Shown: positions 22,865-24,142, numbered from the stretch's first letter. The stretch: 64,000 nucleotides of DNA from an uncultured Solirubrobacterales bacterium (GCA_963753145.1 CAVWAX010000001.1:39573-103572), one strand, 5' to 3'. Numbers and translations: made by a program. Notes: generated by a model not told the origin, from the sequence alone.

Positions 22865-23635
22865 ATGCCCGACTATGTACCCGGAACGCCGTCCTGGGTC
22901 GAACTTTCCTCGTCTGACACCGACGCGTCGGCTCGCTTCTATGGCGAGTTGATGGGCTGGAGTCTGACCGAGCCCGGGGGAGAGGAGACCGGCGGCTACC
23001 GCATGTTCCAGAAGGACTCCAAGAACGTGGCCGGCCTGATGGGCCTGATGCAGGAGGGGCAGCCGGTCGCGTGGTCCACCTACATCAGCGTGGCCGACGC
23101 CGACGAGACCGCGGCCAAGGTCAAGGCTGCGGGCGGCAGCGCGATAGTAGAGCCGATGGACGTCATGGACATAGGCCGGATGGCGTTCTTCGCGGACCCC
23201 ACCGGCGCGGTCTTCGGCGTGTGGCAGCCCAAGAGCTTCGCCGGCGCGGATCTCGTCAACGAGCCGGGTTCGCTGTGCTGGAACAAGGTACTCACCCGCG
23301 ACGCCGATGCCGGCAAGGCGTTCTACCAAGCTGTCTTCGGCTGGCAGGGCCGTCCCCCGGCCTTCGAGGGCGCTCCCACCACGTACACGGTGTGGGAGAA
23401 CGAGGGCAAAGAAGTCGGCGGCATGATGCAAATGACCGACGAGTACTTTCCCCCCGAGATACCGCCCCACTGGGGCGTCGTGTTCGCGGTCGCCGACTGC
23501 GACGCCGCCGTCGCCAAGGCCCGCGAGCTGGGCGCCACCATCACCAACGGGCCGATGGACATGCCGATCGGCCGTTTCGCCGGGATCGTCAACCCGCAGG
23601 GAGCGGCCTTCACGGTGATGCAGCCGGCTGGCTGA
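22865..23635 (+). CDS. VOC/glyoxalase two-domain protein (CFP32-like)
   Basis: PGTPSWVEL, FYGELMGW, DPTGAVFGVW, PHWGVVFAV; AAGGAG RBS. Confidence 0.9.
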   Translation: MPDYVPGTPSWVELSSSDTDASARFYGELMGWSLTEPGGEETGGYRMFQKDSKNVAGLMGLMQEGQPVAWSTYISVADADETAAKVKAAGGSAIVEPMDVMDIGRMAFFADPTGAVFGVWQPKSFAGADLVNEPGSLCWNKVLTRDADAGKAFYQAVFGWQGRPPAFEGAPTTYTVWENEGKEVGGMMQMTDEYFPPEIPPHWGVVFAVADCDAAVAKARELGATITNGPMDMPIGRFAGIVNPQGAAFTVMQPAG

Positions 23636-23657
23636 CACGGTTAATCATTTTGCTGTT

Positions 23658-23729
23658 CGGGTCGGCGCATGCGCCGACCCGCCGGACCGTACATGTACGG
23701 TCCGGGACCTTGCCGCATGCGGCAAGGTC
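23658..23729. repeat. Three abutting perfect 24-bp palindromes (10-bp arm + CATG + reverse-complement arm)
   Basis: CGGGTCGGCG-CATG-CGCCGACCCG (23658-23681), CCGGACCGTA-CATG-TACGGTCCGG (23682-23705), GACCTTGCCG-CATG-CGGCAAGGTC (23706-23729); AT-rich flanks. Confidence 0.97.
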
Positions 23730-23755
23730 TTCACCCATAATTTGATTGGATCGAC

Positions 23756-24142
23756 ATGCACCCCTTCCGCCAAGCGATCGAAGCTCAAGATCTCAAAGCC
23801 GCCGTGGCGCTGATGAGCGAGGACGTCGTGTTTCGCAGCCCGGTCGTCTTCAAGCCCTACCAGGGCCGCGACGCGGTCGTGATGCTGCTCGGGGCCGTAT
23901 CGCAGGTGTTCGAAGACTTTCGCTACGACCGCGAAATCGGCGCGCCCGGCGCACCCGACCACGCGCTCGTGTTTCGCGCCCGCATCGGCGACCGCGAACT
24001 GGAGGGCTGCGACTTCCTGCACACCAACCCCGCCGGCCTGATCGACGAGATGTGCGTCATGGTCAGGCCGCTCTCCGGCGCCCACGCGCTCGCCGACGCA
24101 ATGCGGGCTCAGCTCGAGCGCACCCAAGCCAAGCTCGCCTAG
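23756..24142 (+). CDS. NTF2/SnoaL-like family protein
   Basis: MHPFRQAIEA, DVVFRSPVVFKPYQG, ELEGCDFL, VMVRPLSG. Confidence 0.85.
   Translation: MHPFRQAIEAQDLKAAVALMSEDVVFRSPVVFKPYQGRDAVVMLLGAVSQVFEDFRYDREIGAPGAPDHALVFRARIGDRELEGCDFLHTNPAGLIDEMCVMVRPLSGAHALADAMRAQLERTQAKLA

Follow-up and report, generated by a model that had tools for sequence, protein, structure and literature searches.

The window analysed here, a stretch of 64,000 nucleotides from an uncultured Solirubrobacterales bacterium, carries one copy of a dispersed family of short repeats, each an array of perfect 24-bp palindromes. The family is apparently undescribed, REP-like and confined to a few genera of uncultured soil Solirubrobacterales, and it probably behaves as lineage-restricted, interspersed, selfish DNA of the REP/BIME or MITE type. 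With moderate confidence we read it as a REP/BIME-like, probably selfish repeat whose symmetry would be kept at the level of DNA, most likely by hairpin-templated template switching, a mechanism that we infer from the patterns described below. If this reading is right, the family is a clean natural case of intra-palindrome concerted evolution in bacteria, in which hundreds of independent 10-bp stems vary and yet a mismatch or a wobble pair is almost never seen. Template switching, so far known mainly as a mutational hotspot in reporters of E. coli and yeast, would become measurable in nature, and DNA-level and RNA-level explanations of compensatory change would become separable.

Anatomy and gene context of the element in the window

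The window corresponds to C1:39573-103572 of a metagenome-assembled genome (MAG) of 3.29 Mb in three contigs, with 67.5% GC and a completeness of 90.8%. Positions 23658-23729 consist of three abutting perfect palindromes of the form N10-CATG-N10', in exact 24-bp register and with a spacer of 0. Unit 1 (23658-23681, CGGGTCGGCG-CATG-CGCCGACCCG) and unit 2 (23682-23705, CCGGACCGTA-CATG-TACGGTCCGG; an identical unit lies at C1:959233) are of type A, whose consensus is CCGGnCGGCG-CATG-CGCCGnCCGG, and unit 3 (23706-23729, GACCTTGCCG-CATG-CGGCAAGGTC) is the terminal unit, of type B, with the consensus GnCnnnGCCG-CATG-CGGCnnnGnC. The array is flanked by tails, both read on the plus strand: TTTTGCTGTT on the 5' side (23648-23657; family consensus ..G..GTT / TGCTGTT) and TTCA on the 3' side (23730-23733; family consensus TTCC / TnCC). 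Similarity to a paralogue at C1:959199-959283 starts with the 5' tail and stops at 23732; since the match, with 91% identity, spans exactly 23648-23732 (tail, array and tail), the element measures 85 bp.

Both neighbouring genes, given here as context only, lie on the plus strand: upstream a two-domain member of the glyoxalase/VOC superfamily (22865-23635; PF00903, 1.1e-19; PF18029, 1.1e-15) and downstream a SnoaL-like gene (SnoaL_2, 23756-24142; PF12680, 4.2e-08). Within the 120-bp gap between the two open reading frames, unit 1 begins 22 nt past the VOC stop and the SnoaL start follows 26 nt past unit 3; with its tails included, the element lies 12 nt past the stop and ends 22 nt short of the start. 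An earlier note on this DNA had described three abutting perfect 24-bp palindromes without spacer in this gap, and every detail of that description was borne out, perfect complementarity included. It had also drawn attention to AT-rich flanks and to a CATAAT motif; both are present, but the AT-rich 5' flank is the element's own tail, and CATAAT is not conserved in the family.

The array is predicted to fold into three 10-bp hairpins with 4-nt loops (-66.1 kcal/mol as RNA and -38.5 kcal/mol as DNA; z about -7.3). Neither a sigma-70-like promoter nor a hairpin-plus-T-run or intrinsic-terminator consensus was detected at the locus, where the 3' tail is of the TTCC type. A split -35/-10 promoter made by the two tails was considered and rejected, since its spacing is wrong and no sigma-70-like promoter was detected. 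The block had been held to be neither a CRISPR nor a canonical intrinsic terminator, and we agree on both counts: apart from the CATG core there is no direct repeat, the units themselves being the variable part, and no terminator-like site was detected, the 3' tail being TTCC and other copies lying within open reading frames and operons.

The adjacency of VOC and SnoaL is unique to the window genome, and in congeners 2-15 kb lie between the two genes; the array thus stands at the junction of a lineage-specific rearrangement. As no congener has VOC adjoining SnoaL, a comparison of filled and empty states at the window's own site is uninformative. The DNA 3' of VOC is different in every species compared, and the search among relatives that the earlier note had suggested for this interval gave one congener (L140) with an array 3' of VOC, made of 5 units. 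Nothing indicates a function particular to VOC or SnoaL. A device specific to this gene pair, as the note implied, did not emerge from the analysis: the block belongs to a dispersed family whose copies have short conserved tails. If VOC and SnoaL are co-transcribed, their transcript would carry three very stable hairpins between the cistrons, and these may incidentally slow 3' exonucleases and protect the upstream cistron, or attenuate read-through; such effects would not be why the element exists.

The VOC coding sequence also contains, at 23550-23573, a CATG-centred near-palindrome with two arm mismatches (GGCCGATGGACATGCCGATCGGCC), which belongs to the chance background (10 such sites genome-wide) and is outside the family.

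Arrays across the genome

Under a chance model with GC 0.675, a match probability of about 0.28 per pair and 10 arm pairs (our own arithmetic), about 0.025 of the 8,337 CATG sites of the genome would be expected to have all ten arm pairs matched. The observed number is 55, and the earlier judgement that the palindromes are not due to chance is upheld. The mismatch spectrum of these CATG sites is bimodal (55 sites with 0 mismatches, 4 with 1, 10 with 2, 59 with 3, and then a rise to the random background). Moreover, perfect palindromes of half-length 12 are over-represented in the genome, with 58 occurrences against 7-13 at half-lengths of 10, 11 and 13.

The genome contains 18 arrays with about 58 units (15 arrays with 3 units, one with 4 and two with 5). 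A common module emerges once the arrays are oriented by their flanks. It is composed of a 5' tail (T)TTGCTGTT, A units, a terminal B unit and the 3' tail TTCC; in its basic form, of about 85 bp, the module has the TGCTGTT tail, two A units, one B unit and the TTCC tail. The best Rfam match to the element scored 25.7 bits against a gathering threshold of 58, and no family was assigned; our literature search found no description of such repeats either, in agreement with the earlier note, to whose author no known family came to mind.

The GC skew of the MAG is too weak for replichores to be defined. Outside the window, C1:273766-274091 holds a 326-bp perfect palindrome of about 163 A followed by about 163 T, which looks like an artefact of assembly or polishing and not real sequence. 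Three further perfect palindromes, each standing alone and 32-34 bp long, have no relation to the 24-bp family; they lie at C1:1704664-1704697, C3:337857-337888 and C3:959737-959768.

Distribution among taxa

Related genomes were searched with a pattern of three YRCATGYR cores at 24-bp spacing, the reversed pattern being used as a control. The scan for arrays that the note had proposed proved productive here too: 15 of 24 congeneric genomes contain the pattern (3-49 matches per genome), and none of 16 genomes of other genera does. Across the order, 3 of 73 sampled genera are positive among 251 genomes, all three in the window's own family, and no match was found in about 180 genomes of five other families; the reversed controls gave 0 matches in both surveys.

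A scan of one genome per prokaryotic species yielded at least 120 matching stretches. Among the matches listed, the titles are those of uncultured Solirubrobacterales or Solirubrobacteraceae MAGs, except for one 'Actinomycetota' and one 'Proteobacteria', and the source MAGs come from several projects and assemblers. The 'Proteobacteria' match was rejected, being an ordinary direct tandem repeat and not a palindrome; carriage by phages was rejected as well, all five IMG/VR matches being ordinary direct tandem repeats. The true named matches among those listed are all Solirubrobacterales MAGs, and it is from MAGs alone that the family is known. In two genomes (G202 and G277) the copies are far more alike than in the window genome, most arrays having CCGGACGGTG or CnGATCGGTG as their middle unit, which suggests recent bursts of amplification in particular lineages. 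In practice, the arrays can serve as a lineage marker, and they probably break contigs when the genomes of these soil bacteria are assembled from short reads.

Family-wide anatomy and placement

A pooled set of 158 non-redundant arrays comprises 651 units. Arrays have 3-8 units, most commonly 3; the distance from centre to centre is 24 bp in 377 of 450 spacings, and linkers measure 0-3 nt. The centre is CATG in 633 of the 651 units. The hexamer is GCATGC in 475 and ACATGT in 155, so the purine of the closing pair is always 5', and purines alternate with pyrimidines in the core G-Y-R-CATG-Y-R-C. Arm diversity is high (412 distinct arms in 582 units) and solo units are rare (13, against 683 in arrays). 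The earlier note had proposed hairpin-forming units of equal length that have CATG as their constant centre and arms that are complementary but not conserved, and this is supported. No gene is consistently linked to the arrays and no pair of arrays consistently brackets a gene, for which reason arrays as the ends of a larger autonomous element were rejected.

As regards placement, 74 of 116 classifiable arrays lie in tandem gaps, 30 in convergent and 12 in divergent ones. Against a crude background taken from the window genome (60% tandem, 17% convergent, 23% divergent), convergent gaps are enriched and divergent gaps depleted. The median distance from an array to the adjacent stop is 22 nt, and to the adjacent start about 100 nt, context statistics that use the gene calls of a crude GC3-based caller. 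Arrays occur in both orientations relative to the neighbouring genes. REP elements are known to be distributed in this way.

About 900 RCATGY sites lie outside arrays and receive no special treatment. A role in methylation, one of those that the earlier note had offered, or in restriction found no support: restriction-modification pressure on RCATGY was rejected, its observed/expected ratio of 0.72-0.81 being the same as for CCATGG and TCATGA, with CATG overall at 1.02.

Symmetry of the arms and its rate of change

The covariation of the arms was analysed in a gapless alignment of 70 different three-unit arrays, with 2,100 cells. Watson-Crick pairing is found in 99.5% of the cells, against 67.7 +/- 0.7% in shuffled alignments, none of 500 being as high. 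Twenty-nine of the 30 pairs vary on both sides; counted by cells, 613 two-sided changes stand against 3 one-sided ones (G.U), and the covariation score is 0.80, compared with 0.20 after shuffling and at most 0.12 when the partners are slid. The 5,859 internal pairs of the pooled arrays include 23 mismatches, of which 9 are G.T. Imperfect slots between perfect units number 10, against 614 perfect units, and 3 of the 10 have perfect arms and an altered centre; the slot immediately outside an array drops to background, that is, the edges of the arrays are sharp. On these two grounds the symmetry is not an effect of ascertainment. The centre also changes symmetrically, as from GCATGC to GTATAC in L176.

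Both flanking genes are shared by 91 pairs of arrays, within which the number of units varies from 3 to 6. Matched units at orthologous sites differ through symmetric double substitutions; in one orthologous group the base at one stem position varies among A, C and T between three species, and its exact partner always stands opposite. The compensated changes number 425, of which 237 (56%) are of transversion type and 188 of transition type. Relatives thus have both arrays and massive compensatory change, and it was the lack of these that the earlier note had named as speaking against its interpretation. Matched arm pairs have diverged by 0.18-0.23, against 0.2-0.3 for the fastest-evolving codon position of the flanking genes, a comparison in which units are matched at no more than 3 differences, a common consensus can give false matches and the flanks do not evolve in a strictly neutral way; another 20-27% of units are without any match at orthologous arrays. 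The stem pairs would therefore seem to flip at a roughly near-neutral rate, without the wobble intermediates that dominate the evolution of RNA helices.

Filled and empty sites and copies within genes

Copies of the family occupy loci that are otherwise unrelated. Orthologous sites may be filled in one species and empty in another, and arrays, once inserted, are long-lived and gain or lose units. An SDR/lyase operon junction, syntenic across the genus, is an example. In the empty state the two genes abut, overlap (GTGGTGA) or leave a gap of at most 28 nt; in nine species, the window genome's among them, the junction holds 3-8 units. The units CCGGACGGCG|CCGACCCGTG are identical in L171 and L175, others have been gained or lost, and short linkers (T, AA, AAT) occur between units. 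L168 and L170 have no array at this junction and carry a small hairpin, GACCCCC-nnn-GGGGGTC, followed by CCCAAAAAA, which may be another short repeat or an opposite-strand terminator. In L177 a 13-bp direct duplication of the upstream gene's end (GTCGATGTGGTGA twice) stands directly before the array, one unit of which has a CTTG centre.

A second example is the array C1:165961, which lies in frame within a 460-aa PLP decarboxylase of the Orn/DAP/Arg type and makes up residues 161-185. A single PF02784 match covers residues 74-325, and GC3 is 0.87 before the array and 0.92 after it, with the frame unchanged. Among the orthologues, the empty state is a short loop, DEIDR-LARLADGTQSVL-IRATP, and eight others contain arrays of 3-5 units in frame; wherever the tails GCTGT(T) and TTCC are seen, an array is present too. 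L212 has a single chimeric unit, composed of the left half of unit 1 and the right half of unit 5 of L219. To judge by these halves, it is a deletion product of an L219-type array, formed via the conserved GGCGCATGCGCCG cores, and documents one route of loss.

Other variants of the same loop were also seen. In L214, L218, L227, L234 and L235 it is array-free and contains, at the same position, unrelated insertions of 29-38 aa, which could be decayed arrays turned into ordinary coding sequence. In L209, L215 and L225 the loop length is not a multiple of three, and this could reflect either a frameshifted gene or long-read indel errors near palindromes.

Arrays in frame within genes account for 7 of 147 testable cases (about 5%), always in the frame GCG-CAT-GCG-CCG, which encodes AHAP. 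One is in the gene of the leucyl-tRNA synthetase (LeuRS), at a site common to five species that separates the catalytic core from the anticodon-binding domain, and an ABC-F ATPase gene hosts another. At the filled and empty sites of the SDR/lyase junction and of the decarboxylase no consistent target-site duplication was found; a 2-bp 'TT' duplication, considered as a candidate, is unsupported by either the tail consensus or these sites.

How the symmetry may be maintained

In the mechanism that we favour, a point mutation would first hit one arm of a palindrome; during replication or repair the strand would fold back on itself and one arm would template its partner, so that the change would be undone or else transferred to the second arm (quasipalindrome template switching, or intra-palindrome conversion). 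The palindrome would thus stay perfect while its sequence drifts at an approximately neutral rate. Template switching was chosen as the likeliest mechanism because it is well established and ends in just this result: the nascent strand takes its own inverted repeat as template, so that a quasipalindrome becomes 'perfect or more perfect' (PMC7202029). That the symmetry is enforced on DNA, and not through RNA folding, is argued by the virtual absence of wobble pairs together with the frequency of transversion-type flips, by the near-neutral flip rate, by the symmetry of the centre itself and by the copies in LeuRS and in the decarboxylase, which are equally perfect where a terminator would be harmful. 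Of the roles suggested in the earlier note, then, a hairpin process at the DNA level is favoured; RNA attenuation or processing is disfavoured as the main purpose, since copies lie in frame within LeuRS and other genes, and in operons.

Two considerations could be held against this reading: given very large populations, fast compensatory evolution could arise under selection alone, and long orthologous retention together with the bias towards 3' ends could mean a host function. Since no transposase, target-site duplication or excision footprint was found, the case for mobility is made from the distribution of the copies, from paralogues and from presence and absence at orthologous sites. A loss of ExoVII raising template switching in array-bearing lineages was also considered and rejected: XseA was found in the window genome as well as in its relatives, whether these have arrays or not.

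Template switching alone does not account for the seeding of new copies or for the three-unit module, and the invariant 10-bp core and the fixed length of 24 bp, which it does not explain, hint at a protein partner; for these reasons a hairpin-recognising activity stays a live rival. In its broader form, which we hold only tentatively, the family would be a 'self-perfecting' palindromic element of a new class, in which a specific activity on RCATGY hairpins both seeds units and rewrites arms. This activity could be a hairpin-directed enzyme, or unusually efficient fold-back copying by the replisome or repair machinery of the host; the result would be concerted evolution within 24 bp and near-neutral drift in a family that has no known transposase and is tolerated within essential genes, where it would give rise to new peptide loops.

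The narrower form of this idea, namely that a dedicated enzyme (a nuclease for hairpins or single-stranded DNA, a recombinase or an HUH-like protein) reads RCATGY hairpins and tails, mobilises the module and may regenerate an arm, appears doubtful to us. In its favour, the core G-Y-R-CATG-Y-R-C is invariant, with the purine of the closing pair always 5', the units keep a fixed length of 24 bp, conservation extends to the asymmetric tails and units almost never stand alone (683 in arrays, 13 solo). The highly similar copies in G202 and G277 suggest recent bursts, and RAYTs offer a precedent, since they cleave REP hairpins with a flanking tetranucleotide (PMC3733652). However, no RAYT (Y1 HUH, PF01797) is encoded in the window genome, and among 81 congeners PF01797 matches were found in 3, none of which belongs to the 37 high-quality genomes, with positive controls matching; a RAYT or IS200-type transposase as the seeding activity is therefore rejected. 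No gene is consistently linked to or bracketed by arrays, and the REPs of CGTC type indicate that palindromic families can exist without a dedicated transposase. The hairpin-recognising enzyme of the earlier note is thus possible in principle, but no candidate was found.

That the arrays are RNA elements selected by the host (U-tract-independent terminators, attenuators or barriers to 3' exonucleases), their symmetry being kept by selection on RNA folding, we likewise regard as unlikely. The predicted hairpins are indeed very stable (-66.1 kcal/mol, z -7.3), arrays prefer the 3' ends of genes and convergent gaps and are kept at orthologous sites across species, and for hairpin clusters a role as intrinsic terminators has been proposed in bacteria, GC-rich ones included (PMC8355165). 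RNA helices tolerate wobble, though, and here G.U occurs in only 3 of 2,100 cells, while 56% of the compensated changes are of transversion type. Moreover, arrays lie in frame in the LeuRS, PLP decarboxylase and ABC-F genes and in an operon where stop and start codons overlap when the array is absent, 10% of them occupy divergent promoter gaps, both orientations are used, there is no U tract, and the CATG centre is symmetric, which is needless for a loop.

We consider it quite improbable that the units are phased duplex binding sites for a dimeric protein, such as a nucleoid-associated protein or gyrase, reading a 10-bp core every 24 bp. Binding of the gyrase or nucleoid type has been proposed for BIMEs, and the core, a perfect palindrome of alternating purines and pyrimidines, recurs strictly every 24 bp; but the outer 7 bp of each arm, not conserved in sequence, stay perfectly complementary, and about 900 RCATGY sites outside the arrays are not treated specially. 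Finally, although chimeric long reads can yield palindromes, an assembly, adapter or fold-back artefact is very unlikely, to the point of being negligible, because more than 100 MAGs, assembled from long or short reads in independent studies and with independent assemblers, share the array architecture at orthologous sites, with species-specific arms and in frame within conserved genes.

Comparison with known repeats

The preferred reading, a selfish repeat with symmetry kept on DNA, places the family closest to the REP/BIME/REPIN elements of Proteobacteria, which are mobilised by RAYT, an IS200-like Y1 HUH protein (PMC3116915, PMC3337134, PMC3733652). The two have in common short GC-rich hairpin palindromes at tens of sites, clustered in arrays and mostly placed just 3' of stops, as well as vertical inheritance within a lineage with a copy number that varies between relatives; as dispersed short hairpin-forming repeats the 18 arrays of the window genome fit this description, most copies being intergenic and near stops. 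They differ in architecture: the present units are self-complementary, perfect palindromes that abut without spacer at 24-bp spacing, and not the inverted REP doublets of a REPIN. REP stems typically have mismatches and bulges, virtually absent here, and the arms of the present family, unlike those of REP/BIME, vary in sequence from copy to copy (412 distinct arms of 582). Neither a GTAG nor a CGTC tetranucleotide tag was found in the consensus ..G..GTT CCGGnCGGCGCATGCGCCGnCCGG ... TnCC. The family extends REP-like elements to a deep, uncultured actinobacterial lineage without RAYT, which sharpens the question of how palindromic repeats lacking a transposase spread. The CGTC-tagged REPs are a similar case, a palindromic family that 'apparently lacks a dedicated transposase', but they have another tag and consensus and are not reported as abutting, perfect, sequence-variable palindromes (PMC3733652).

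Compared with MITEs, the tails TGCTGTT and TTCC are not inverted repeats of each other, filled and empty sites show no consistent duplication and no pair of copies brackets a gene. The attC sites of integrons are conserved in structure and variable in sequence, and they are recognised as folded single strands. They are also imperfect, with essential extrahelical bases, and occur singly, tied to cassettes and an integrase. The present family resembles them in that structure is kept while sequence is free, and differs in having no attC-type bases, cassettes or integrase.

The hairpin clusters of bacteria without canonical U-tract terminators are several adjacent stable hairpins located 3' of stops (PMC8355165); these are heterogeneous in length and loop and form no repeat family, whereas the present arrays also lie in genes and operons. 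Template-switch mutagenesis has been studied as a hotspot in quasipalindrome (QP) reporters of E. coli lacZ (PMC7202029), that is, as a hotspot mechanism and not as the long-term mode of maintenance of a natural repeat family, which is what we infer here.

The Rickettsia palindromic elements (RPEs) enter housekeeping genes in frame and add a peptide without destroying the protein (PMC10969869). In-frame insertion that keeps the host reading frame open is found here as well, in LeuRS, the PLP decarboxylase and the ABC-F ATPase. By their description, RPEs measure about 150 bp, have a conserved sequence and peptide and belong to another phylum, whereas the present family has 24-bp units with variable arms, is in frame in only about 5% of cases and has an AHAP-like core as its only recurring peptide. 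After the RPEs, it would be the second example of palindromic repeats that remodel essential proteins in frame.
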